Shown: one piece after another, positions 283-13,414 of the stretch
Layout of the letters: each line of letters opens with the position of its first letter
Numbering within the stretch: position 1 is the stretch's first letter
NCBI GenBank assembly: GCA_035631035.1
Contig: DASQJL010000076.1
Span: 13,482-77,481, forward strand
From: Candidatus Binatia bacterium
GTDB taxonomy: Bacteria; Eisenbacteria; RBG-16-71-46; SZUA-252
Reading direction: 5' to 3'
Length of the DNA: 64,000 nucleotides
Notes under the pieces: generated by a model
What the model saw: only the letters and a program-made list of their open reading frames with translations
Told to the model about the DNA's origin: nothing
Databases searched by the model: none
Made by a program: the position numbers and the translations under genes

Positions 283-816
283 TCAGGGAAGCTGGGAGTC
301 CTTGAAGTTCGCCACCTGGACCGGGACGCTGGCCAGCGCCTCGACCTTGTCGCCGTTGTTCGAGCCGTTGGCCATCACGAACCCGTAGACCTTGATGCGC
401 GCCGTCGTGGCGGTCGCGACATTCGTCGGCACGGAGGCCTTGGCGCCCAGATCGCTCAGCGCGATCGAGCCGTCGGCGGTGCCGCCCGAGGGAACGCGAA
501 GGGTGAGGCCGCCCGAGTAGGGAGGATAGATGCCGTTGTCGTAGGTGACCGAATACCCGGTCACGACGATCTCGGAGTACGGGCTTCCCGGAGCGAGCGG
601 CGCCGAGCCGTCGGCCGGGACGTTGCCGAGCGTGATCTTCGCTTCGTCCGCCACGACCGTGCCGGAATCCGAAACCAGGTCGCTGTAGAAGACGTTGCCG
701 TCGTTCACCGAGACCACCGTGAGGAAGGAGCGGGTGGACGTGTCGGTGCATCCTCCGATCGCGAGCAGCGCGATCCCTGCGAGCGCCGCGAGCGCGAGCA
801 ACCTGAGCGTCTTCAT
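283..816 (-). CDS. secreted lipoprotein, unknown function (177 aa)
   Basis: N-terminus MKTLRLLALAALAGIALLAIGGC has a signal peptide and lipobox (IGG-C). AAGGAGA RBS lies 7 nt upstream of the ATG. Gly/Ser/Thr-rich beta-type composition. Confidence 0.6.
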   Translation of the reverse strand: MKTLRLLALAALAGIALLAIGGCTDTSTRSFLTVVSVNDGNVFYSDLVSDSGTVVADEAKITLGNVPADGSAPLAPGSPYSEIVVTGYSVTYDNGIYPPYSGGLTLRVPSGGTADGSIALSDLGAKASVPTNVATATTARIKVYGFVMANGSNNGDKVEALASVPVQVANFKDSQLP

Positions 817-998
817 ATCGGTCTCCTTGGCCTACGCGATCCCCATCGCGCATGAAGCGGGTAGGAACGGCATACGAAACCCCGCAGCCGGAAACGCAAA
901 GGGCATGCCACATGTAGGCCCGAAGGGCCGGGCTGTAAGTAACACCGTTTACAGAGGCTTATCGGCGGTGGCTCAACTTTGTCCCATGGCAGCGAAAC

Positions 999-1026
999 GG
1001 GCGCCGTGCATAACGCATCGGCGCCC
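999..1026 (-). terminator. candidate intrinsic terminator of the SOD gene: stem GGGCGCCG/CGGCGCCC, 12-nt loop, followed by GUUUCG on the - strand transcript
   Basis: Perfect 8-bp GC stem 27 nt downstream of the SOD stop in an intergenic region. Confidence 0.35.
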
Positions 1027-1052
1027 GCCGGACTGCAACGCGATGAAGCCGG

Positions 1053-1664
1053 TTACTTCTTGGCCATCGCCATGCTCGCCGCGTTCGTGAAACGGCGGTT
1101 CACCTCGTCCCAGTTGATGTTCCGCATGAACGCCTCGACGTAGGCCTTCCGGTCCGAGCCGTAGTCGATGAAGTAGGAGTGCTCGTACGTGTCGCAATTG
1201 AGCACCGGAATCGTGCCCCAGACGCCGCCCTGGTTCTGGGCGTCGCCGATGAAGTTGTGGAGCATGCGGTCGGTGGGGTCGTAGGCGAGAACGACCCAGC
1301 CGCGCGCGCACATCGCGGAAGCCTTGAAGTCCTCCTCCCACGCGGCGAACGTTCCGAAGTCCTCCTTGATCTTGTCGACGACCTCGCCCTTGGGCTGTCC
1401 GTCGCCGCCCATGATCGAGAAGTAGATCTCGTGGAGGATCTGGCCGTTGGCGGCAAACGTCTCCTCGGCCTTCAGCCCCCGCATCTCGCTGTAGATCTGA
1501 TTGGCCTTGCTGCGGTCGACCTTCTGCAATGCCTCTTCGATCTCGTTCCGCTTGTTCACGTAGCCCGCGTACAGCTTGTCGTGGTGGATCTCCATCGTCT
1601 TCGACCCGATCCCCTTCAACGCGTCGTTCGCGTAGGGGAGGGGTTGAACGGGGTGCTTGGCCAT
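1053..1664 (-). CDS. sod: Fe/Mn-family superoxide dismutase (203 aa)
   Basis: MEIHHDKLYAGYVNKRNE and the WEHAYY-like region (DTYEHSYFIDYGSDRKAYVEAF) match the SodA/SodB family over the full length. AAGGAG RBS. Confidence 0.85.
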   Translation of the reverse strand: MAKHPVQPLPYANDALKGIGSKTMEIHHDKLYAGYVNKRNEIEEALQKVDRSKANQIYSEMRGLKAEETFAANGQILHEIYFSIMGGDGQPKGEVVDKIKEDFGTFAAWEEDFKASAMCARGWVVLAYDPTDRMLHNFIGDAQNQGGVWGTIPVLNCDTYEHSYFIDYGSDRKAYVEAFMRNINWDEVNRRFTNAASMAMAKK

Positions 1665-1802
1665 GAGGGCGTCTCCTTATGTCCCGCCGCGAGGCGGCGG
1701 AATGGGGTCCTTGGAGAATGAGGCAGCCACTATATCAGATGCGCCGCGACGGGGTTGGGAGCGCGTCCCGAGGGCCGCGGGCGCCGCGGAAGCCCGCCGG
1801 GT

Positions 1803-4499
1803 TCAGTTCTCCTGGCCGGGAAGCCGCCGTCGGATCGATTCGACGCGGTAAAGGCGCGGTCCCTTCTCTTCCAGCGCCAGCTCCACCTCGGCGCCCACTT
1901 CCTTGCCGAGCAGGTTCCGCGCGAGGGGCGCCCGGTAGGAGAGCACCCCGGGGGCGATGTTCCCGTCCCCCTCGCCCAAAATCCAGAAGGTGACCGGGGG
2001 ATCGTTGTTGCCCTCGGGGCGCAGCGTCGCCTCGGTGCCGACGCCGACGCGCGAGGAGTCGACTTCGAGGTTCTCGATCAGGCGCGCGCGCTGGATCATC
2101 CCCATCACTTCCTGAAGCCGGGCCGCGGCATTCGCCTGCCGCTGCTTGGCCGCCTCGTACTCGGCGTTTTCGCGCAGGTCGCCCAGCGCGCGCGCCTTTT
2201 CGATGGCGGCGGGGATCGAGGTCTTGAGGTCGCGCGCGATCTTCGCCATCTCCACGTTGAGCCGGTCGTAGGTGGCGCGCGTCATGAGGGTGAACTGCGT
2301 GTCCACGTCCTCGGTGCTGCGCCCCTCGAGCAGATCCTGCGCCCTCGCCTTGCGGCGGCGCTCGTATTCGTCGCCCAGGTCCCCCAGGCCGACTTCCTGG
2401 AGGAACTCGAGGATCGGGACGAGGCGCCGCTCGCTGCCGTTCCAGTGGAGCACCGTGCGCTCCAGCGCTTCCGCGGTCTCCGTTTCGGGGGGCGTGGCGC
2501 GGAAGCGCCGATGGAGCAGCCCGCCGTCGGCGACCAGCCCGTAGAGGCGCTCCGGCACGCCCTCGGGGAGGTCCCCTTCGAGAAGGCGGACCGTGGCGAC
2601 GAGGAGCGCGTCCATCGTCGGGGCCCCCGCGTCGTCGGGGTGGGCCGCGAAGTGCTCGACGAGCCGCGCCGAGAGCGCCGGGTGCTCCGACGCGCGCGTC
2701 ATGCGCTGCTCGATCGCGCGCGCGTAGCGCTCGGGCCCGAGCAGCTCGCGGAGCCGCTCCCGGCCCTCCTCGCGGAGCCGGGGAAGCCGGCTCTCGACGG
2801 CGAACCAGAGGAACTCCTCCTCGCCCGCGACGCCGCGCGAGAGCCCGAGGAGCTGCTCCTGGTTCAAGCCGAGCGCCAGGTCGTCGGGCCGGAGTCCGGC
2901 CGCGATGAGGTCGGCGAGGATGACCTGCGCGGTCTCCTTCGGCACCGAATGCCAGGAGAGCGCGTAGCAGAGCGCCTGCGCGCGCATCGTCCCCTCGAGC
3001 CGCTCGTCCTGGGACCAGCGCGCGACGAGCGGGCCCGCGTGCGCGCTCAGGCGCGGCTCGTCCTCGGGGTGCTCGCGGAGGAACTTGCGGATCAGCTGAA
3101 GTCCCGCGCCGGGCGCCTTCGGCGCGATCGTGGGCAGCGTGGCCGCGGCCGCCTCGCTCCCCTCGGGCGCAAGCCGGAACTGCCCGCGGTACGCCTCGCT
3201 CGTGTCGAGGCGCGCGTCGGTCTTCCAGCGCTCCTTGACCCGCTTCCAGAAGAGGGTCGCGTCGAAGCCGGGGAGCGCCGCTTCCAGGCGCGGCTTCATC
3301 TGCGCCTGCGTCGCGGCTCCGCCCATGTCGCGGAGCACCCGCGCGATCACCTCGGGGTCTCCCTCCGCCGCGAGCGCGCGGGCGCGCTCCGGCTGCTCGA
3401 TCGCGAGGACGCGAAGGCCGTCGCTCGGGAGCCGGTCCAGGGAACGGGACGCCATGGCGAAGGACATCTTGTGTCCGGAGCGGCCGGTGAAGTCCAGGGT
3501 CAGCGAATCGCCGTCGCTCGCGAGGACGCGACCGATCCCCCAGGTCTGGTGCGTGACGTAGGCGCCGGGCGGCAGGGCCAGGATCTTCGGCACCCGCGCG
3601 GCGATCGCGTCGTACGACTCGCTCGGATCGAGGATCCCCGAGCCCTGGATGATCGCTTCGGGATCGGGCTCCTTGCCCACGACGATCCGGAAGAGCCTGG
3701 CGAACATGGCGCGCCCGGCGGTGCCGCCCGGCAGGCGCGGGAGGATCGGAGCGACGTCGTCCCAGTCGAAGCGCCCGCTGGCGCGCTCCTCGAGCGGCGG
3801 AATCGCGAGATCGAGGATCGATTCCGAGTCGCTCCAGGGGGCCAGGGCCGCGTAGCGAAGGAGGATCTTCCCGATGCGGACTGGCGCGGTTTCGAGATCC
3901 TCGTCCACCGCGCGGAAGAGCGCCTCGCTCAACCCTTCGTGGACTCCGTCGTCCAGCGAGAGCTCGACGGCCCGGAGCCGGTGCTCGCGCGCGGCTTCGC
4001 GCGCATCGGGATCGGCGGAGCGCTCGAGCAACGCGGCGAGATCGGCGTGCAGCTCGGGATCGGCGTGGCGGATCCCGATCGCGGTGCGTAGCCAGTCGGC
4101 GCGCTCCTCTTCGGATGCCGCGGGATTCTGCGAGAGGAAGTGGAGGAAGCGCACCGCGGCGGGGGTCGGCTCCGGCTCGAGAAAGCGGGGAAGGAGCGCC
4201 AGCACGCCGTCCCGGTCGCCGGCCGCGAGCAGCTTGTCCGAGACGACCTCGAGGGCGTCGAGCGCGCGCGCCCGCTCGCCCAGTCCCTGCTGGAGCAGGG
4301 CGGCCAGGAGCAGGAGATCCCAGCGCTTCTTTCGCGCCGGCTCCTGCTCGAGCGCCTTGAGCGCGGCCTCGGCCGCGCTTCGCTCGATCAGGCGGTGCGC
4401 GAGAAGCTCGGTGTCCGCCCAGCGCGGATCGCCGTGGCGAAGCGGCGGCTCCTCGCCGGTGGCGCTCTTCAGATAGGCTCGCAGCTCTGCGTCGATCAT
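1803..4499 (-). CDS. large GreA/GreB-domain fusion protein (898 aa from ATG 4499; the ORF opens at TTG 4535)
   Basis: The C-terminal ~155 aa are a complete GreA-like module: coiled coil …GDLRENAEYEAAKQRQANAAARLQEV… plus an FKBP-like domain …VGVGTEATLRPEGNNDPPVTFWILGEGDGNIAPGVLSYRAPLARNLLGKEVGAEVEL…. The preceding ~740 aa are helical and contain a Tudor/CarD-like stretch YVTHQTWGIGRVLASDGDSLTLDF. GAGGAT RBS precedes ATG 4499. Confidence 0.7.
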   Translation of the reverse strand: MIDAELRAYLKSATGEEPPLRHGDPRWADTELLAHRLIERSAAEAALKALEQEPARKKRWDLLLLAALLQQGLGERARALDALEVVSDKLLAAGDRDGVLALLPRFLEPEPTPAAVRFLHFLSQNPAASEEERADWLRTAIGIRHADPELHADLAALLERSADPDAREAAREHRLRAVELSLDDGVHEGLSEALFRAVDEDLETAPVRIGKILLRYAALAPWSDSESILDLAIPPLEERASGRFDWDDVAPILPRLPGGTAGRAMFARLFRIVVGKEPDPEAIIQGSGILDPSESYDAIAARVPKILALPPGAYVTHQTWGIGRVLASDGDSLTLDFTGRSGHKMSFAMASRSLDRLPSDGLRVLAIEQPERARALAAEGDPEVIARVLRDMGGAATQAQMKPRLEAALPGFDATLFWKRVKERWKTDARLDTSEAYRGQFRLAPEGSEAAAATLPTIAPKAPGAGLQLIRKFLREHPEDEPRLSAHAGPLVARWSQDERLEGTMRAQALCYALSWHSVPKETAQVILADLIAAGLRPDDLALGLNQEQLLGLSRGVAGEEEFLWFAVESRLPRLREEGRERLRELLGPERYARAIEQRMTRASEHPALSARLVEHFAAHPDDAGAPTMDALLVATVRLLEGDLPEGVPERLYGLVADGGLLHRRFRATPPETETAEALERTVLHWNGSERRLVPILEFLQEVGLGDLGDEYERRRKARAQDLLEGRSTEDVDTQFTLMTRATYDRLNVEMAKIARDLKTSIPAAIEKARALGDLRENAEYEAAKQRQANAAARLQEVMGMIQRARLIENLEVDSSRVGVGTEATLRPEGNNDPPVTFWILGEGDGNIAPGVLSYRAPLARNLLGKEVGAEVELALEEKGPRLYRVESIRRRLPGQEN

Positions 4500-7212: not shown

Positions 7213-8187
7213 CTATTTGGAGATCCTCCCGAACTTCCGCTTCTCCAGCTTCTCGATGAGCGCGTCGAGGGCCCGGTCGAGCACCTGCGCCACGTCCCGC
7301 GGCGACACAGCGTGACTGAGTAGCGCCTGAGCGAGTCGCAGCTTGTCGTGCGTGCCCTTGGAGACCGTTACTTGAACGAGGAAGGAAGGGGGCCGAGCCG
7401 GAGTTGGGGCGTTGTTCCCGGGGGTCCGTTCGACAGCAGCCTCCGGCGATAGATCGTCAGCTCCGGCACTCTCGGGCGATGGATCTTCCGCTCCGGCACT
7501 CTCGGGCGATGGACGGTCAGTGCCGTCCGCCGTTGACGCCTGATTGCGCGAGCCACTGTGCATCGCGGGGCCCGCGGCGTCGACGTCCGAACCCTGTCCG
7601 TCCACGACGACAGTTGTCTCCGATTTCACCGCCGCTAGCGGCGGTAAAAACTTGGGCGGAGCTTCGGGAGTGGGCTCGCCCGCCGGTGAATCGAACATGT
7701 CATGGCGCCGATCGAGCGCAACCGTCTTCGGAAGGGGAAGGGCGACAGGTCGGATGGACGCGAGTGGTGGAACGCTCGAGGCCTGGGGGAAGCGCGAGGC
7801 GAGCCACTCTTGAACTTCGGCCCTGCTCCGGCCTCCGACCGCACGGAGCAGCTCGTTGATATTCCCGGGCGTGAGATGGGGAGCGATCAGGCAAACGGCC
7901 GTGAGATGGATCCTGCCCTCCGCCACCGCCTGGAACAGAACCGGAAAACGCCGCGCCGCCCGCGCCGCTTGGATGCGTCTCCAGGCGGGACCCTCCGCAA
8001 AGCGCAACTCACGGAGGCAGTAGGTGAACATGGAGGAGAACCCTGCCGGAGCGTACAGCCTGCGTGCGTCGAACTCACCAAGGTAAGCCAGGAGAGCCGC
8101 GGTCAGCTGGCCATTGCGGGCGAGAATGATTCGCAGGTTCCGAAGCAGCACGGCGTCGCTGAGATGCGTCAACGAATAGGAATTCAT
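7213..8187 (-). CDS. hypothetical protein with a DUF222-like N-terminal domain (the domain that normally precedes HNH nucleases in 13E12-type proteins); no HNH motif; Pro/Ser/Glu decapeptide repeats in the C-terminal half
   Basis: …FDARRLYAPAGFSSMFTYCLRELRFAEGPAWRRIQAARAARRFPVLFQAVAEGRIHLTAVCLIAPHL… matches the DUF222 pattern. C-terminus has SPESAGAEDP/SPESAGADDL repeats. Confidence 0.45.
   Translation of the reverse strand: MNSYSLTHLSDAVLLRNLRIILARNGQLTAALLAYLGEFDARRLYAPAGFSSMFTYCLRELRFAEGPAWRRIQAARAARRFPVLFQAVAEGRIHLTAVCLIAPHLTPGNINELLRAVGGRSRAEVQEWLASRFPQASSVPPLASIRPVALPLPKTVALDRRHDMFDSPAGEPTPEAPPKFLPPLAAVKSETTVVVDGQGSDVDAAGPAMHSGSRNQASTADGTDRPSPESAGAEDPSPESAGADDLSPEAAVERTPGNNAPTPARPPSFLVQVTVSKGTHDKLRLAQALLSHAVSPRDVAQVLDRALDALIEKLEKRKFGRISK
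7431..7520. repeat. in-frame tandem 30-bp DNA repeat (~2.5 copies; unit CTCCGGCACTCTCGGGCGATGGA…) inside the DUF222-like gene
   Basis: Copies at 7461-7490 and 7491-7520, plus a degenerate copy at 7431-7460. Confidence 0.7.
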
Positions 8188-8358
8188 GCAAACACCTGTT
8201 TGCGGGGAGGTCAGGCTCTCTCGGTGTCGTGCCGTTGGGGGGGCTTCGCTTAGGCAAGGCGACGCAGGGGACCGACGGATGAAGTAACAAGTTTCGGTCC
8301 AGGATCCGAAGGCGTGGCGGGGAGGTGCGGAGGGGCAGCGCGGATCCGCTACCGACAG

Positions 8359-10074
8359 CTAAATATCGTGCGGCATGTATCCCACGGGGCTCTGATAGTA
8401 GTAATCCGACGGGTAGTGCAGGAAGTTGGACACGCGGCTCATGTACAGGCAGGCGAAATCCTTGAGCTGGTGGCCGAAGCGGCTGGACTCGTTGCCCTCG
8501 CGAAACAGCGATCCCCACCGCGAATTGTAGGCGCGGTCGATCTTCAGCCGGATCGCGTCGATCTCCCCCTGCAGCTCGACGCTGTGCTTCTCGAGGGCGC
8601 CGACCTGCTCGGGGATCTCGGCGATGCGCCCGCCCAGCTCGTGCCGCCGGCTCGGATCGTTGCCGTTCTCGCTCAGCACCAGCGTCAGCCGCCGGAGTTC
8701 CCGGCCCAGCACGGCCTTTTCGATCTCGCTCTGGTGCCGCTCGGCCGAGAGGCGCGCGAGCCGATCGAATTCCTTCGCATGCTCGGCGGTCACGGTGATC
8801 TCGCGGTCCAGCTCGGGGACGAGCATCGCGGTGCGCCAGCCGCGCGCGCGCTTCGACTGCAGAATGTCCCCGTAGGTGTGATCGCCGAAATACAGCACGT
8901 GCTCGGCCGAGGCGCCGAGCGTGCGCTCGAGCCACGTCGCGTCGCCGCGACGGACGGCCGCGCACGCGATCCGGGAGCCCTGGATTTCGGGAACCGGCTC
9001 GGCCGCCTGGGTCTCCGTGAAGAAATCGGGCTTCCGCGCCTCGACGACGACCGCGTGGAAGAGGTCGGTCCAGTGCTCCGGCGCGCCGCGTCCCTTCATC
9101 AAGATGTGGCGGAGCAGCGTGTCGGTGTAGGCCCATTCGCTGTTCGTGACCAGGAAGAGCTTCTTTCCGGTGCGGCGGAACTCTTCGAGCACGGTGCGCA
9201 GCTCGGGGTCGAGGCGGATGTAGCGATCGAGGTCGTTCGTGATCACGTTCTTCAAGCTGCCGTCGCGGTGCGCCTCGTCGATCATCTCGCGCACGTCGCG
9301 ATAGAGCGCTTCGTAGTCCAGCGTCGTTCCCGGGCGCCGCCGCTCCAGGAGGTCGATCAGGCACAGGTACAGGTACACCTCGGGCAGATGGAAGAGCGTG
9401 TCCACGGAAACGTAGTTCTCGTGCCCGAGCCGGATGCGCGACGTGCGGTAGGCTCGGCGGCGCTCCTCCGAACGGAGCGGCATCAGGCCGTGGGACCCGC
9501 GGGTGACCAGGTTGAAGTAGTCCATCTTCAGCAGATTGCCGCGCTTCCGATCCACCACGAGGCCCCGGATCACGAAGGAGGGGTCGTACTTGAGGTCGAG
9601 GATCTCCGTGGGATAGCCCTTGTTCGCGACCAATTTTTCCTTCGTGAGATCGAACGCCAGCTCCTCGACGCTCGTCGGGTCGTAGTGGGCGAGCGTGTGG
9701 TCCAGGTCGAAGCCGATGGCGCGGATCTGCGTCATGCGGAGGTTCCGGTTCACGAAGACGCGATGCCGCCGGGGAATCCGGTGCTCGCGATAGCGGAGCG
9801 CGCGCGCGGACGGCTCGTGCGGGGCGCCGGGGTGCGCGTGGTGGGCCGGCTGCGGTCCGTGCGGCTTGAGCGGCGTGGCCGGGGCGAAGGGCGCGGCCGG
9901 GGCGAACGGCGCCGACGGCTCCGCCGGGACACCAGGCGGCGCCTCGATCTCGGGCAGCGATCCGGCGGGAGCGACGCCCGCGGGGGTCGCGTCAGGCGCC
10001 TCGGCGGGACGAGACGTCGCGGGCGGCGCGGGAGCTCCGGTCGCTCCGCCCCGCTCCTTCTTCATGGCGCTCAT
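8359..10074 (-). CDS. HAD-superfamily cytosolic purine 5'-nucleotidase (cN-II/NT5C2-like, Pfam 5_nucleotid) with a Pro/Ala-rich N-terminal extension
   Basis: HRVFVNRNLRMTQIRAIGFDLDHTLAHY matches the human cN-II N-terminal region [27 protein letters not shown], including HAD motif I DxDxT. Homology continues across the ORF. The start is set at internal Met MSAMKK; the ORF opens at 10155. Confidence 0.75.
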   Translation of the reverse strand: MSAMKKERGGATGAPAPPATSRPAEAPDATPAGVAPAGSLPEIEAPPGVPAEPSAPFAPAAPFAPATPLKPHGPQPAHHAHPGAPHEPSARALRYREHRIPRRHRVFVNRNLRMTQIRAIGFDLDHTLAHYDPTSVEELAFDLTKEKLVANKGYPTEILDLKYDPSFVIRGLVVDRKRGNLLKMDYFNLVTRGSHGLMPLRSEERRRAYRTSRIRLGHENYVSVDTLFHLPEVYLYLCLIDLLERRRPGTTLDYEALYRDVREMIDEAHRDGSLKNVITNDLDRYIRLDPELRTVLEEFRRTGKKLFLVTNSEWAYTDTLLRHILMKGRGAPEHWTDLFHAVVVEARKPDFFTETQAAEPVPEIQGSRIACAAVRRGDATWLERTLGASAEHVLYFGDHTYGDILQSKRARGWRTAMLVPELDREITVTAEHAKEFDRLARLSAERHQSEIEKAVLGRELRRLTLVLSENGNDPSRRHELGGRIAEIPEQVGALEKHSVELQGEIDAIRLKIDRAYNSRWGSLFREGNESSRFGHQLKDFACLYMSRVSNFLHYPSDYYYQSPVGYMPHDI

Positions 10075-10158
10075 GTTCGCGAATTGTAGGCGCTGGACGC
10101 GCTTCGGGCCAGCCGCCATTCGCGGAGGCTCGCTGCGTCCTCGGCCGGCCGCCATTCC

Positions 10159-10187
10159 TTGACGGCATCACGGCCCGTCCGTACTCT
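10159..10187 (+). promoter_or_regulatory. candidate sigma70-type promoter TTGACG-17 nt-TACTCT upstream of the LbH-protein/rhomboid operon
   Basis: Good -35, weak -10, 6 nt before GTG 10194. Confidence 0.25.
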
Positions 10188-10193
10188 GCCCGG

Positions 10194-11498
10194 GTGAATC
10201 TCTGCCTCTACGAAGACCCGGATGCCTCGGCGTTCGGTCCCCACGCGCTCCTCCGTCCCGTGTTCGCGCTCCGATGCGGCGCCTTCACCCTGATCGAGAA
10301 GCTCGTGCGCGCCTTTCCCGAAGCCCCGCTCCATCTCATGGTCCGCTCCGAGGTCGAGGAGGTGACGCGCGCGCTCTATCCGACCGCGTCGGTCGGAGAG
10401 CCGCCCGCCGAAGAGACGCTCTTCGTGAATGCGCGGCTCTGCATGACCGACGACGAGGTGCTCCATTTTCTCGCCGCCTCTCCGACCGAAGCGTCCTACA
10501 TGTCGGGCGGCACGCTCTTCGCCGCGAAGGTGTCCGCGCCCCGCGTGGCCCACGCCGCCGGGCACCTTCGCGCCGGCGAGCCGGAGCGCGCCTTCGAAGA
10601 GATCCGGATGCCGGCCGAGGTGAACGCGTTCCTCGCGCGCTCGGCGGCGGATCTCATCCGATGGAGCCCGCGTCAGATCGTGCAGGACTTCCGGTACGCC
10701 TTCCAGCCGGAGACCGTCCGGGGGAAGATCGACGAGGGCGCGCACCTTCTGGAGCCGCGTGCGATCCATGTGGCGCGCGGCGCGCGCGTGATGGCGGGGG
10801 CCGTGCTGAACGCGGAGGAGGGCCCGATCCTGATCCAGGAGAACGCCGTGATCGAGCCGCTCGCCTACGTGGAGGGCCCGGCCGTCATCGGCGAGCGCTC
10901 GCGGATCAAGGCGGGCGCGCAGATTCGAGGCGGCACGTCGATCGGTCCGGTCTGCAAGATCGGGGGCGAGGTCGAGGCGTCGGTGTTCCAGGGGTACGCG
11001 AACAAGCAGCACGACGGCTTCGTCGGGCATTCCTTCGTGGGGGAATGGGTGAACCTGGGCGCGGGCACGATCACCAGCGATCTCAAGAACAACTACTCCA
11101 CGGTGCGCACCTTCCGGACCGCCGCCGACTGGATCGAGCGCCGCGGCGAGGATTCGGGGCAGCGGCTCCTGGGACTCACGGTGGGGGACTATACGAAGAC
11201 GGGCATCGGCGCCACGTTCCCGACCGGCGCGGTGGTGGGCGTCGGGTGCAACATCTACGGCACCGCGCTCATGCCGACCTACGTCCCGTCGTTCGCCTGG
11301 GGCGAGCCGGGACGGCTGGTCGAGCACGGCATCGACGCCATGATCGAGACCGCGGCCCGCGCGATGGGGCGCCGCCAGGTGGAGCTCTCGGTGCCGCTCG
11401 ATTCCCGCATCCGCCAGGCGTTCGACGACACGCGGGAGGACCGCGCCCGCTTCCTCGAAGCGCAGCACCGCGAGCCGGCGGGGAGCGCCAGGCCGTGA
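10194..11498 (+). CDS. left-handed beta-helix (LbH, hexapeptide-repeat) protein with a nucleotidyltransferase-like N-terminal domain (GlmU / putative sugar nucleotidyltransferase family), 434 aa
   Basis: Hexapeptide repeats …IQENAVIEPLAYVEGPAVIGERSRIKAGAQIRGGTSIGPVCKIGGEVEASVF…. Confidence 0.6.
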   Translation: MNLCLYEDPDASAFGPHALLRPVFALRCGAFTLIEKLVRAFPEAPLHLMVRSEVEEVTRALYPTASVGEPPAEETLFVNARLCMTDDEVLHFLAASPTEASYMSGGTLFAAKVSAPRVAHAAGHLRAGEPERAFEEIRMPAEVNAFLARSAADLIRWSPRQIVQDFRYAFQPETVRGKIDEGAHLLEPRAIHVARGARVMAGAVLNAEEGPILIQENAVIEPLAYVEGPAVIGERSRIKAGAQIRGGTSIGPVCKIGGEVEASVFQGYANKQHDGFVGHSFVGEWVNLGAGTITSDLKNNYSTVRTFRTAADWIERRGEDSGQRLLGLTVGDYTKTGIGATFPTGAVVGVGCNIYGTALMPTYVPSFAWGEPGRLVEHGIDAMIETAARAMGRRQVELSVPLDSRIRQAFDDTREDRARFLEAQHREPAGSARP

Positions 11499-12289: not shown

Positions 12290-13414
12290 CTACGAGCGTC
12301 CCGACCGCAGCCCCGCCATCACCTCGTCGAGTACCTCCCGCGGCGGACGCACCTGCTCCAGCGTGAGCGACGAGAGCGGCGCGTCCACCAGCGCCAGATC
12401 CTTGTCCAGCGCGGCCTCGTTCGCGTTCACGTAGAGCAGGCCCGTCACGAATTTGCCCTCCTCGCGCCCGCGGTTCAGCGTGGCCAGCGCCTGGCCCGGA
12501 TCGTAGGGGTCGTAGTCCTCGCCCAGCTTCTTCAGCACGACGCGCGAGCCGTCGTGCAGCTTCACCTCCCGCGACTCGCCCGGCGCGTAGTCCACCTCGA
12601 TGTTCTCGAAGTGGGGGACGTAGGTCACGTCGTGGAGCGGGGCGTCGTGCTCCTTGACCGCGGTGTAGGAGCGCGTCGAGCCCTCGTGCGCGTTGAACGT
12701 CACGCAGGGGGAGATCACGTCCACGACGGCGGTGCCGCGATGGCTCAGTGCCGCTTTCAGGATCGGCCGGAGCTGCTTGGGATCGCCCGAGAAGGAGCGC
12801 GCCACGAAGCCGCATCCGAGCTGGATCGCGATGGCGCACAGGTCGATCGGCATCAGCTCGTTCACGGCGCCCGACTTGGCGCGGCTCCCCACGTCGGCGG
12901 TCGCCGAGAACTGCCCCTTGGTCAGCCCGTAGACGCCGTTGTTCTCGATGATATAGGCGACCGGCACGTTCCGCCGCACCAGGTGGCAGAACTGACCGAG
13001 TCCGATCGAGGCGGTGTCGCCGTCGCCCGAGACGCCCAGGAGCGTGAGCTCGCGGTTGGCGAGGAACGCGCCGGTCGCCACGGAGGGCATGCGGCCATGC
13101 ACCGCGTTGAACGAATGCGAGCGGCCGATGAAGTAGGCCGGCGTCTTGCTGGAGCAGCCGATCCCCGACATCTTGGCCACGCGGTGCGGCTCCAACCCCA
13201 GCTCGAAGGCGGCCTGGACGATGCTTCCGGTGATCGCGTCGTGACCGCAGCCGGGGCAGAGCGTGGACTTGGCGCCCTTGTAGTCCGCCACGGTGAGGCC
13301 GATCCGGTTCTTCGGTACCGCCGCGCTCCCCGCTCCGGCGGCGCCCGCCGATCCCGCGCCCGCCGGCCCCGCGGCGTTGCCGTTCCCCTTCGGGATGTTC
13401 GCGCCGCCGCTCAT
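12290..13414 (-). CDS. korB: 2-oxoglutarate/2-oxoacid:ferredoxin oxidoreductase beta subunit (TPP-binding), 374 aa
   Basis: CPGCGH…GIGCSS…GDGD TPP motifs. Its ATG overlaps the korA stop (ATGA). Confidence 0.85.
   Translation of the reverse strand: MSGGANIPKGNGNAAGPAGAGSAGAAGAGSAAVPKNRIGLTVADYKGAKSTLCPGCGHDAITGSIVQAAFELGLEPHRVAKMSGIGCSSKTPAYFIGRSHSFNAVHGRMPSVATGAFLANRELTLLGVSGDGDTASIGLGQFCHLVRRNVPVAYIIENNGVYGLTKGQFSATADVGSRAKSGAVNELMPIDLCAIAIQLGCGFVARSFSGDPKQLRPILKAALSHRGTAVVDVISPCVTFNAHEGSTRSYTAVKEHDAPLHDVTYVPHFENIEVDYAPGESREVKLHDGSRVVLKKLGEDYDPYDPGQALATLNRGREEGKFVTGLLYVNANEAALDKDLALVDAPLSSLTLEQVRPPREVLDEVMAGLRSGRS

Follow-up and report, generated by a model that had tools for sequence, protein, structure and literature searches.

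A cN-II-type HAD-IG 5'-nucleotidase of Candidatus Eisenbacteria with a probable leaderless start and a variable Pro/Ala-rich N-terminal tail

The window analysed here, a stretch of 64,000 nucleotides from contig DASQJL010000076.1, carries on its minus strand a real open reading frame at 8359..10155(-) that encodes a full-length HAD-IG, or cN-II-type, 5'-nucleotidase. As first proposed from an ORF listing, this frame comprises 598 aa, and residues are numbered accordingly unless stated otherwise. We consider it likely that the gene encodes a native, vertically inherited cytosolic HAD-IG nucleotidase, made as a leaderless 571-aa product with a disordered tail that drifts between relatives. The protein is of an already known kind: its nearest database relatives are already named HAD-IG family 5'-nucleotidase.

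The family assignment covers the whole protein. The HAD-IG 5'-nucleotidase domain PF05761 lies at 8365..9759(-) (aa 133-597) and matches profile positions 1-458 of 460 with 465 bits and an E-value of 3e-139 (cutoff, 28.5 bits), and the HAD-IG model TIGR02244 matches with 340.6 bits, above its curated cutoff of 237.15 bits. Compared with the bacterial annotations under TIGR02244 and InterPro IPR008380, there is no difference of substance. The best sequence matches in the PDB are Legionella pneumophila cN-II (LpcN-II; E 2.6e-78, colinear over aa 131-598) and human NT5C2 (E ~1e-70), which belongs to the same Pfam family and is 36% identical over ~437 aa. The peptide that had been quoted for its likeness to the human enzyme, HRVFVNRNLRMTQIRAIGFDLDHTLAHY, corresponds to aa 131-158. 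LpcN-II (lpg0095; PDB 2BDE, 4G63, 4OHF) is the closest solved structure both by sequence and by fold, though only 33% identical. An AF2 model of the monomer, built from 60 closely related sequences (mean pLDDT 63.7), predicts a cN-II-type fold with a Rossmann-like core, a large cap and a long helical hairpin arm. All of its top 50 Foldseek matches are Legionella or human cN-II structures, with E-values from 2e-23 to 2e-16 and a TM of only ~0.5, because the disordered tail and the moderate quality of the model limit the score. The sequence-only reading had claimed true homology to cN-II across the entire protein, and the two family models, the PDB matches and Foldseek all bear it out. An ordinary HAD phosphatase resembling cN-II at DxDxT-type motifs alone could draw on the weak, sub-threshold matches of the generic HAD models PF00702 and PF13419 to the nucleotidase. 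However, this candidate is excluded by the end-to-end PF05761 alignment, by colinearity with Legionella cN-II over 468 aa and by a fold search that returns cN-II structures only, and we give it practically no probability.

The HAD-IG/cN-II family was first characterised in eukaryotes, and the gene had been read as belonging to an overwhelmingly eukaryotic family with Legionella-type exceptions. The bacterial record does not agree with that description. NCBI has a naming model for the bacterial proteins; the search for relatives gave 1241 matches, headed by proteins that carry the name HAD-IG 5'-nucleotidase [Cand. Eisenbacteria]; the family forms 543 clusters at 50% identity (E<=1e-30); and relatives occur in at least 579 bacterial species genomes of GTDB. 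Carriers include Eisenbacteria, Gemmatimonadota, Krumholzibacteriia, Fibrobacteraceae, Wallbacteria and many Myxococcota, cultured genera among them. The family is better described as a widespread, vertically inherited bacterial one (FCB-type candidate phyla and Myxococcota) than as a eukaryotic one with rare bacterial outliers. To our knowledge, Legionella pneumophila cN-II is the only bacterial HAD-IG 5'-nucleotidase to have been characterised biochemically, and for this reason we regard the family as under-studied rather than exotic.

Within this family, the gene appears from sequence comparison to be native to Eisenbacteria, bacterial and vertically inherited. The most similar deposited sequences are 96% (partial) and 88% (full length) identical to this one, and identity declines by grades, from 96-68% in a syntenic Eisenbacteria clade through 45-50% (other Eisenbacteria, Gemmatimonadota and Krumholzibacteriia) to 38-43% (Myxococcota). 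An NJ gene tree follows bacterial taxonomy and places the window sequence inside Candidatus Eisenbacteria, with the human and Legionella proteins outside. Among the genes for which GC3 was used (nucleotidase, alt-GlmU, aminotransferase and orf324), the nucleotidase (0.912) equals its divergent neighbour alt-GlmU (0.913), and no mobile-element context was found on the promoter side. Horizontal acquisition, which had been suggested earlier, would mean a recent gain of a nucleotide-pool modulator from a eukaryote or a Legionella-like donor. The protein is about as similar to human NT5C2 (36% identity) as to the Legionella enzyme (33%), which could be taken to favour such a gain, as could the family's history of eukaryotic characterisation. 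Yet every one of the closest relatives is bacterial, and the taxonomy-following tree, the conserved synteny, the neighbour-like GC3 and the lack of mobile-element context on the promoter side all speak against it, making such a gain very improbable.

The catalytic apparatus appears complete. We took the definitions of the HAD motifs and helix A from PMC5070119 and the roles of residues in cN-II from PMC5070119 and PMC4979751. Motif I, DLDHT (aa 150-154; 9694..9708(-)), aligns with human D52/D54/T56, with D150 as the predicted nucleophile (human D52) and D152 as the predicted acid/base (human D54). Motif II, TNS (T337/N338/S339; 9139..9147(-)), aligns with human T249, N250 and S251, and the motif III lysine K375 (9031..9033(-)) with human K292. 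Motif IV, GDHTYGD (aa 424-430), which together with the helix A equivalent occupies 8839..8886(-), corresponds to human D351 and D356 and provides D425 and D430 as predicted Mg2+ residues. The residues of motifs I-IV are all identical to those of human NT5C2 and invariant in a 60-sequence clade alignment, and all catalytic residues are shared with LpcN-II.

The IMP pocket is likewise largely kept (human F157, R202, D206, H209, K215, S251 and K292), with two changes in the base clamp and pocket, human Tyr210 to Arg and Met53 to Leu. Because the Arg contacting the 6-oxo group of IMP, the Phe/His base clamp and the Ser/Lys ribose ligands are retained, 6-oxopurines (IMP/GMP) are most likely preferred, and from the conserved pocket residues we infer Mg2+-dependent hydrolysis of IMP and GMP. 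By homology, the enzyme would hydrolyse purine nucleoside 5'-monophosphates via an aspartyl-phosphate intermediate, trimming the IMP/GMP pool. Pocket residues predict specificity only loosely, however, since Legionella cN-II has Gln at the human R202 position, where the window protein has Arg, and still prefers GMP (PMC8475336). Both substrate and effector are assigned by inference because the nearest member with biochemistry is the Legionella enzyme, at 33% identity.

Regulation may have been conserved in part. Directly after motif IV stands the segment GDILQSKRARG, which aligns at the sequence level with GDILKSKKRQG at human 355-365 (helix A). Since the GDILxSK segment is kept, the disorder-to-order switch of helix A is probably still used for regulation; the human regulatory hotspot residues R39, R291, S360, R367 and L375 are kept as well. 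Effector site 1 of the human enzyme, which binds ATP or Ap4A, consists of R144, D145, I152, N154, F354, Q453, R456 and Y457 (PMC4161293), and only one of these eight, Q453 (Q563 here), is identical in the window protein. R144 is replaced by Leu (L243), R456 by Asp (D566), N154 by Asp and I152 by Ser, D145 has no aligned residue, and the changes of F354 to Y and Y457 to F are conservative. Because both triphosphate-binding arginines are lost, the alignment indicates that the effector is not ATP bound in the human cN-II manner. Several residues of the site instead match LpcN-II, a GTP-activated enzyme with a preference for GMP (PMC8475336): the two proteins share L, D, Y, Q and F at human effector-site positions, whereas at the R456 position the Asp of the window protein faces an Arg in LpcN-II.

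The acidic (poly-Glu/Asp) C-tail of the human type is absent because the protein stops at the domain boundary, ending ...GYMPHDI* at PF05761 position 458/460, and LpcN-II is likewise without one. Measured against adenylate-activated enzymes of the NT5C2 type, the protein has the helix A segment and lacks both the ATP/Ap4A site residues and the acidic C-tail. A check of the allosteric site, proposed with the original annotation, gives a divided answer: the helix A segment is kept, and the human ATP-site side chains are lost. Bacterial enzymes that keep the helix A switch and not the human ATP site could serve as comparators for the evolution of cN-II allostery.

The two-helix hairpin arm (aa 460-543; 8527..8778(-)) is a further point of difference. 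In the AF2 model it comprises helices 433-468 and 474-516, counted from M28, with pLDDT of 82-94. This region is colinear with Legionella cN-II, although the hairpin of the window protein is ~19 residues longer in the aligned arm, and it coincides with a gap between two matched stretches of human NT5C2, whose helical arm is shorter. The human counterpart of the arm takes part in the subunit interface of cN-II (residues 385-433; PMC5070119).

The 5' end of the gene has probably been over-called by 81 nt. We place the true start at ATG 10074, which is M28 of the 598-aa ORF and lies 27 codons downstream of the first proposal; the best-supported CDS is then 8359..10074(-), 571 aa plus stop, and the 81 nt of codons 1-27 (10075..10155(-)) are probably untranslated, with the nucleotidase promoter inside them. 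A putative -10 box, TACAAT (10083..10088(-)), lies 8 nt upstream of ATG 10074 in leaderless geometry, preceded at a distance of 17 nt by a -35-like element, TGGCCC (10106..10111(-)). An exact TACAAT is found 6-8 nt (N6/8) before an in-frame ATG or GTG at 16/16 clade loci. Its conservation spans two reading frames: the 'LQ' or 'YN' called in homologues both come from this one DNA hexamer. The hexamer is rare, with 4 copies in the 64-kb window when both strands are counted (128 kb), and every locus inspected has TGGC(C/G)N or TTGGGA at 17-18 nt from the -10 box. Conservation at 6-8 nt spacing in all 16 loci and in two frames points to a -10 element, with leaderless translation from 10074, and TACAAT-N8-ATG agrees with the leaderless arrangement, in which a -10 element ~6-8 nt before the start leaves no room for a Shine-Dalgarno site. 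Transcription would most likely begin at the TGGCCC-N17-TACAAT promoter and yield a leaderless mRNA from ATG 10074, encoding 571 aa. A consensus sigma-70 scan of 8100..10400 called no promoter; it missed that of the nucleotidase because the -35 element fits the consensus at 3/6 positions only, and the promoter call thus comes from comparative conservation. Across the whole window, ORFs of at least 150 aa showed no enrichment of TANNNT 5-8 nt before their starts; the two divergent genes were the sole exceptions.

The product could instead start at 10155 (598 aa) or at M13 (10119), in which case it would include the peptide MAAGRGRSEPPR and have an N-terminal extension of ~110 aa. The frame is open from 10155, gene callers gave several homologues (P0001-P0004) the long form, and AAGGA stands immediately before ATG 10155. 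That AAGGA has a spacing of zero, however, and so is unusable as a Shine-Dalgarno site for this ATG, and a start at 10155 would leave a 38-bp gap to the divergent gene, a gap holding the conserved -35 box of that gene (TTGACG, 10159..10164, 3 nt from ATG 10155). In the upstream 'residues' it is the DNA that is conserved, in two frames, and not the protein sequence, and GC3 is lower in the region of codons 1-27 (0.78) than in the core (0.90-0.95). At three loci (L001, L007 and L008) gene callers chose the start equivalent to ATG 10074; these have zero upstream in-frame starts and still keep the TACAAT-N-ATG arrangement. We therefore regard a start upstream of M28 as rather improbable: inspection of the RBS and comparison of TACAAT sites probably shift the start from 10155, as first read, to ATG 10074. 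The conserved TACAAT-N6/8-start arrangement offers a concrete fix for over-extended gene starts in the clade, and beyond annotation quality the gene has little significance.

Counted from ATG 10074, the protein begins with an 86-aa Pro/Ala-rich tail (51% P+A; 9817..10074(-)) that is predicted to be intrinsically disordered. The existence of a P/A-rich N-terminal region, as originally described, is confirmed by composition (Ala occurs 29 times and Pro 27 times among the first 132 residues of the 598-aa ORF), and the tail must be translated because there is no alternative start codon between M31 and V135 and all tail indels across the clade are in frame. Its supposed length of ~110 aa is probably too great, as the best start leaves 86 aa and codons 1-27 are most likely promoter DNA. 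Nor is it unusual, since members of the clade regularly carry P/A-rich tails, which vary in length from 18 to 93 aa. LpcN-II has ~3 residues before the domain, and in human NT5C2 the disordered tail is C-terminal rather than N-terminal. Conservation in the clade begins only at the 19-aa pre-domain segment EPSARALRYREHRIPRRHR (9760..9816(-)), which has invariant or near-invariant columns in alignments of 22 and 60 sequences. The tail has a pLDDT of ~30, by itself weak evidence for disorder because the AF2 model is only moderate, and its dN/dS is 0.16-0.43, against 0.06-0.14 for the core. We found no signal peptide or membrane anchor in it (maximum Kyte-Doolittle hydropathy over 19 aa, 0.43), and no hydrophobic core, twin-arginine motif or lipobox.

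We predict that the tail is a disordered, non-catalytic and fast-evolving appendage. It contains an 18-bp tandem repeat in 2.3 copies (9871..9912(-); Tandem Repeats Finder, score 70) encoding APFAPAAPFAPATP, and repeat slippage would let its length drift, relatives having tails of 18 to 93 aa. The tail could also be a specific functional module, serving autoinhibition or regulation (as the acidic C-tail does in human cN-II), localisation or tethering, or secretion. A dN/dS below 1 (0.16-0.43), a loose GAPAPPA...ATPAGAAPAG...APE.EA pattern common to many relatives and the retention of a tail of some length throughout the clade are what such a module would lead one to expect. But tail lengths form a continuous range from 18 to 93 aa, the 496-aa forms are almost tail-less, slippage-type repeats lie inside the tail, and secretion-type features are absent from it. 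Moreover, the composition is the outcome of GC-rich codons, similar low-complexity stretches occur in other proteins of the window, and the alignment of low-complexity sequence inflates the apparent constraint. A dedicated function for the tail is accordingly unlikely in our view.

The divergent neighbour at 10194..11498(+) had been taken for a left-handed beta-helix (LbH) nucleotidyltransferase, correctly so: it is an alternative bacterial GlmU-like sugar-1-phosphate nucleotidyltransferase/acetyltransferase (TIGR03991, alt_bact_glmU, 369 bits) that also matches PF13562 and Hexapep. Its promoter, TTGACG (10159..10164), N17, TACTCT (10182..10187), N6, GTG (+), is kept in 14/16 loci, and the two arrangements suggest leaderless mRNAs for both genes of the divergent pair in this uncultured phylum. 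PADLOC matched none of nucleotidase, GlmU-like gene and orf324, and an anti-phage defence role for them was rejected; neither Rfam nor a tRNA scan found anything in the window. Relatives with at least 68% identity share a conserved block of alt-GlmU, rhomboid / nucleotidase / aminotransferase, EamA, and every clade locus whose flank is long enough keeps the nucleotidase beside alt-GlmU. The nucleotidase adjoins alt-GlmU at 15/16 loci with at least 68% identity and at 0/72 more distant loci, which indicates lineage synteny rather than a family-wide link, and functional coupling to alt-GlmU was rejected because the adjacency is limited to these close relatives.

One could combine tail and promoters in a single reading, in which the hypervariable tail is a tunable regulator of the enzyme and the conserved back-to-back leaderless promoters co-regulate purine-NMP dephosphorylation with UDP-GlcNAc synthesis in Eisenbacteria, but we think this quite improbable. 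Under such a scheme the tail might modulate tetramer assembly or helix A switching, either entropically or as an autoinhibitory arm, with its length set by slippage, and it would take over the function that the acidic C-tail has in the animal enzyme.

The 598-aa open reading frame at 8359..10155 on the reverse strand encodes a true member of the HAD-IG/cN-II family of 5'-nucleotidases, new to a well-annotated family and from an uncultured phylum. The sequence-only reading had placed it at exactly these coordinates, quoted a peptide that we recover as aa 131-158, and claimed homology to cN-II across the whole protein; all three hold. PF05761 (5_nucleotid) aligns over profile positions 1-458 of 460 (465 bits, E 3e-139), and TIGR02244 (NCBIfam, HAD-IG family 5'-nucleotidase) scores 341 bits (cutoff 237). 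Among solved structures, the top sequence match is Legionella pneumophila cN-II (LpcN-II; 2BDE, E 2.6e-78), colinear over aa 131-598, followed by human cN-II (NT5C2, E about 1e-70), which aligns in two separate parts (aa 123-469 and 528-597). A Foldseek search of the PDB with the AlphaFold model returned cN-II structures only, Legionella ranking first. The sequence matches rule out a HAD protein that resembles cN-II in its motifs only, and thus establish family membership.

To compare individual residues, we mapped the protein onto solved structures through HMMER alignments, checking human numbering against S445 and D459. All HAD motif residues of the human enzyme (D52, D54, T56, L57, T249, K292, D351 and D356; PMC5070119) are identical, as D150, D152, T154, L155, T337, K375, D425 and D430, so that the aligned sequence shows a complete HAD catalytic apparatus, and the model shows a predicted cN-II fold. 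The residues of the human IMP pocket, including the 6-oxo contact R202 (PMC4979751), are retained at F157, H209, R202, S251, K215 and K292 (human numbering), with Y210 changed to Arg and M53 to Leu. The enzyme would therefore be expected, as its alignment suggests, to hydrolyse purine 5'-monophosphates, IMP/GMP being the probable ones, in an Mg2+-dependent reaction via a phospho-Asp150 intermediate, and by analogy with LpcN-II it may serve purine-pool homeostasis.

Inspection of the allosteric-site residues, proposed in the sequence-only reading, gave a split result. The helix A switch segment (GDILQSKRARG) is retained, together with the hotspot residues R39, R291, S360, R367 and L375 (human numbering). 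Yet only Q453 is identical among the eight ATP contacts listed for PDB 2XCW (PMC4161293); replacements include R144 to Leu, R456 to Asp, N154 to Asp and I152 to Ser, while D145 lacks an aligned residue. LpcN-II and our protein share the residue at five of the human ATP-contact positions (L, D, Y, Q, F). The acidic C-tail of animal cN-II is missing, since the protein stops where the domain does. In the AlphaFold model (mean pLDDT 63.7, with 80-95 in the core), aa 460-543 of the 598-aa numbering form a long two-helix hairpin, across which Legionella cN-II is colinear; the corresponding human segment, part of the subunit interface (PMC5070119), is shorter. LpcN-II shows a preference for GMP and feedback activation by GTP (PMC8475336). 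Regulation of the window's enzyme may act via helix A, with an effector bound otherwise than ATP in human cN-II. This catalogue of regulatory features retained or missing in bacterial enzymes is of modest added value.

The family had been thought overwhelmingly eukaryotic and this gene horizontally acquired, but search counts, tree, synteny and GC3 support neither idea. In a word-indexed search, 1241 relatives passed E<=1e-10; the best, 68-96% identical, derive from metagenomes and MAGs, and the top ones carry the name HAD-IG 5'-nucleotidase [Cand. Eisenbacteria]. When HMMER was run exhaustively over 1.84 billion representatives clustered at 50% identity, 3827 clusters passed E<=1e-3, of which 1786 reached E<=1e-10 and 543 reached E<=1e-30. 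Scanning one genome per GTDB species confirmed at least 579 stretches encoding relatives; the best 80 of these come from Eisenbacteria, Krumholzibacteriia, Gemmatimonadota, Fibrobacteraceae, Wallbacteria and very many Myxococcota, cultured Myxococcus, Corallococcus, Archangium, Citreicoccus and Anaeromyxobacter included, and the closest among the matches listed is the Eisenbacteria isolate SMAG_U1185 (96%). In a midpoint-rooted neighbour-joining tree of labelled homologues, the window's protein falls deep within an Eisenbacteria clade, itself placed among those of Gemmatimonadota, Krumholzibacteriia and Fibrobacteraceae. The Myxococcota sequences group in a separate coherent clade, and Legionella (33% identity) and human (36%) lie outside, at the root. 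The eukaryotic impression probably arose because LpcN-II is the sole bacterial member described in the open literature (PMC8475336). The syntenic block also occurs on three MAG contigs that bear the labels Candidatus Binatia, Hyphomicrobiales and Candidatus Limnocylindrales, whose nucleotidases are 68-85% identical to the window's core and fall within the Eisenbacteria clade; mis-binning or mislabelling of the contigs is the probable reason.

Recent transfer is also argued against by a conserved gene block and by GC3, which is 0.912 in the nucleotidase core and 0.913 in the divergent neighbour. The block comprises NadA, a 2-oxoacid:ferredoxin oxidoreductase, a rhomboid, this divergent neighbour, a convergent class-III aminotransferase, EamA and a GreA-like gene; it surrounds the nucleotidase in every relative of at least 68% identity whose flanking sequence suffices (15 of 16 loci) and in 0 of 72 loci at <=50% identity. 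The neighbour (10194..11498, forward strand), described earlier as an LbH nucleotidyltransferase-like gene, is indeed an alternative bacterial GlmU-like sugar-1-phosphate nucleotidyltransferase/acetyltransferase (alt-GlmU; TIGR03991, 369 bits; PF13562 plus Hexapep). In one relative's 3.1-Mb contig (L005), alt-GlmU and rhomboid are called as a single 743-aa product (731..2962, reverse strand; PF13562, Hexapep and Rhomboid), which could be a genuine fusion or result from a stop or frameshift that was missed. PADLOC gave no defence-system hit for the nucleotidase, for alt-GlmU or for the 324-aa reading frame described below, and the 64-kb window yielded no tRNA genes and no Rfam families at gathering threshold. 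Between nucleotidase and aminotransferase lies a 324-aa reading frame (7213..8187, reverse strand) with no family above threshold (a faint DUF222 match, E 0.014), a GC3 of 0.73 against about 0.91 in neighbouring genes, and homologues at the two closest loci only (L003, L009). In L003 the same slot also contains a gene of 205 aa, and in L005 it is occupied by a 610-aa PKD/He_PIG protein and a gene of 139 aa. With this changing cargo the position has the look of an insertion hotspot and may carry a decayed mobile gene of the HNH type.

The called 5' end of the nucleotidase (ATG 10155) is probably 81 nt too long. When called N-termini were aligned, 'LQ' was common to one sub-clade and 'YN' to another, in each case upstream of sequence that could not otherwise be aligned; both are a single DNA hexamer, TACAAT, in two reading frames. 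It is followed after 8 or 6 nt by an in-frame ATG/GTG in the 9 loci first examined and in all 16 clade loci, with a TGGC-type -35-like element 17-18 nt upstream; the window (70% GC) has only four copies of TACAAT on both strands together. In the window these elements, all on the reverse strand, are TGGCCC (10111..10106), TACAAT (10088..10083) and ATG (10074..10072; M28), and in three relatives the callers' start is already the one after TACAAT. The alt-GlmU promoter, CTTGACG-N17-TAC(T/C)NT-N6-GTG/ATG in 14 of 16 loci (here TTGACG-N17-TACTCT-N6-GTG, 10159..10196, forward strand), has its -35 box (10159..10164) 3 nt from ATG 10155, and GC3 over the first 40-80 codons of the 598-aa frame is 0.78-0.80, below the 0.90-0.95 of the core. 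On this comparative evidence we place the start at 10074, giving a predicted product of 571 aa and a putatively leaderless or near-leaderless mRNA. A generic consensus scan did not call this promoter, since its -35 fits at 3 of 6 positions only, nor do the starts of the window's other ORFs show any enrichment of this arrangement. As alt-GlmU also appears leaderless, the 119-bp intergenic region (10075..10193) would hold two back-to-back leaderless-type promoters. The corrected start is again of modest added value for the clade.

The Pro/Ala-rich N-terminus noticed from the sequence exists and must be translated, because no ATG, GTG or TTG occurs between M31 and V135 and RYREHRIPRRHR (aa 121-132) is invariant in a 22-sequence close-relative alignment and at least 90% conserved in 60 clade sequences. 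Length differences among relatives are all in frame. It is not, however, unusual as had been thought: tails of 18-93 residues, from conserved start to RYREH, are typical of the clade, the window's being the longest and the common 496-aa forms nearly tail-less. From M28 the tail comprises 86 aa, 51% of them Pro or Ala, and its net charge is close to -1; with hydropathy over 19 residues peaking at 0.43, it is neither a signal peptide nor a membrane anchor. An 18-bp tandem repeat (2.3 copies) encodes APFAPA units, pLDDT is about 30 over residues 1-114 of the 571-aa protein, and dN/dS against four close relatives is 0.16-0.43 in the tail versus 0.06-0.14 in the core. The tail is best read as a weakly constrained, intrinsically disordered appendage that changes length by slippage in a GC-rich genome. 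Translations of other window proteins also contain G/A/P-rich low-complexity stretches. For example, a 2-oxoacid:ferredoxin oxidoreductase beta-like product (12290..13400, reverse strand) has an apparently Gly/Ala-rich low-complexity N-terminus (MSGGANIPKGNGNAAGPAGAGSAGAAGAGSAAVPK...), so that in this genome the nucleotidase is not alone in having such an N-terminus.
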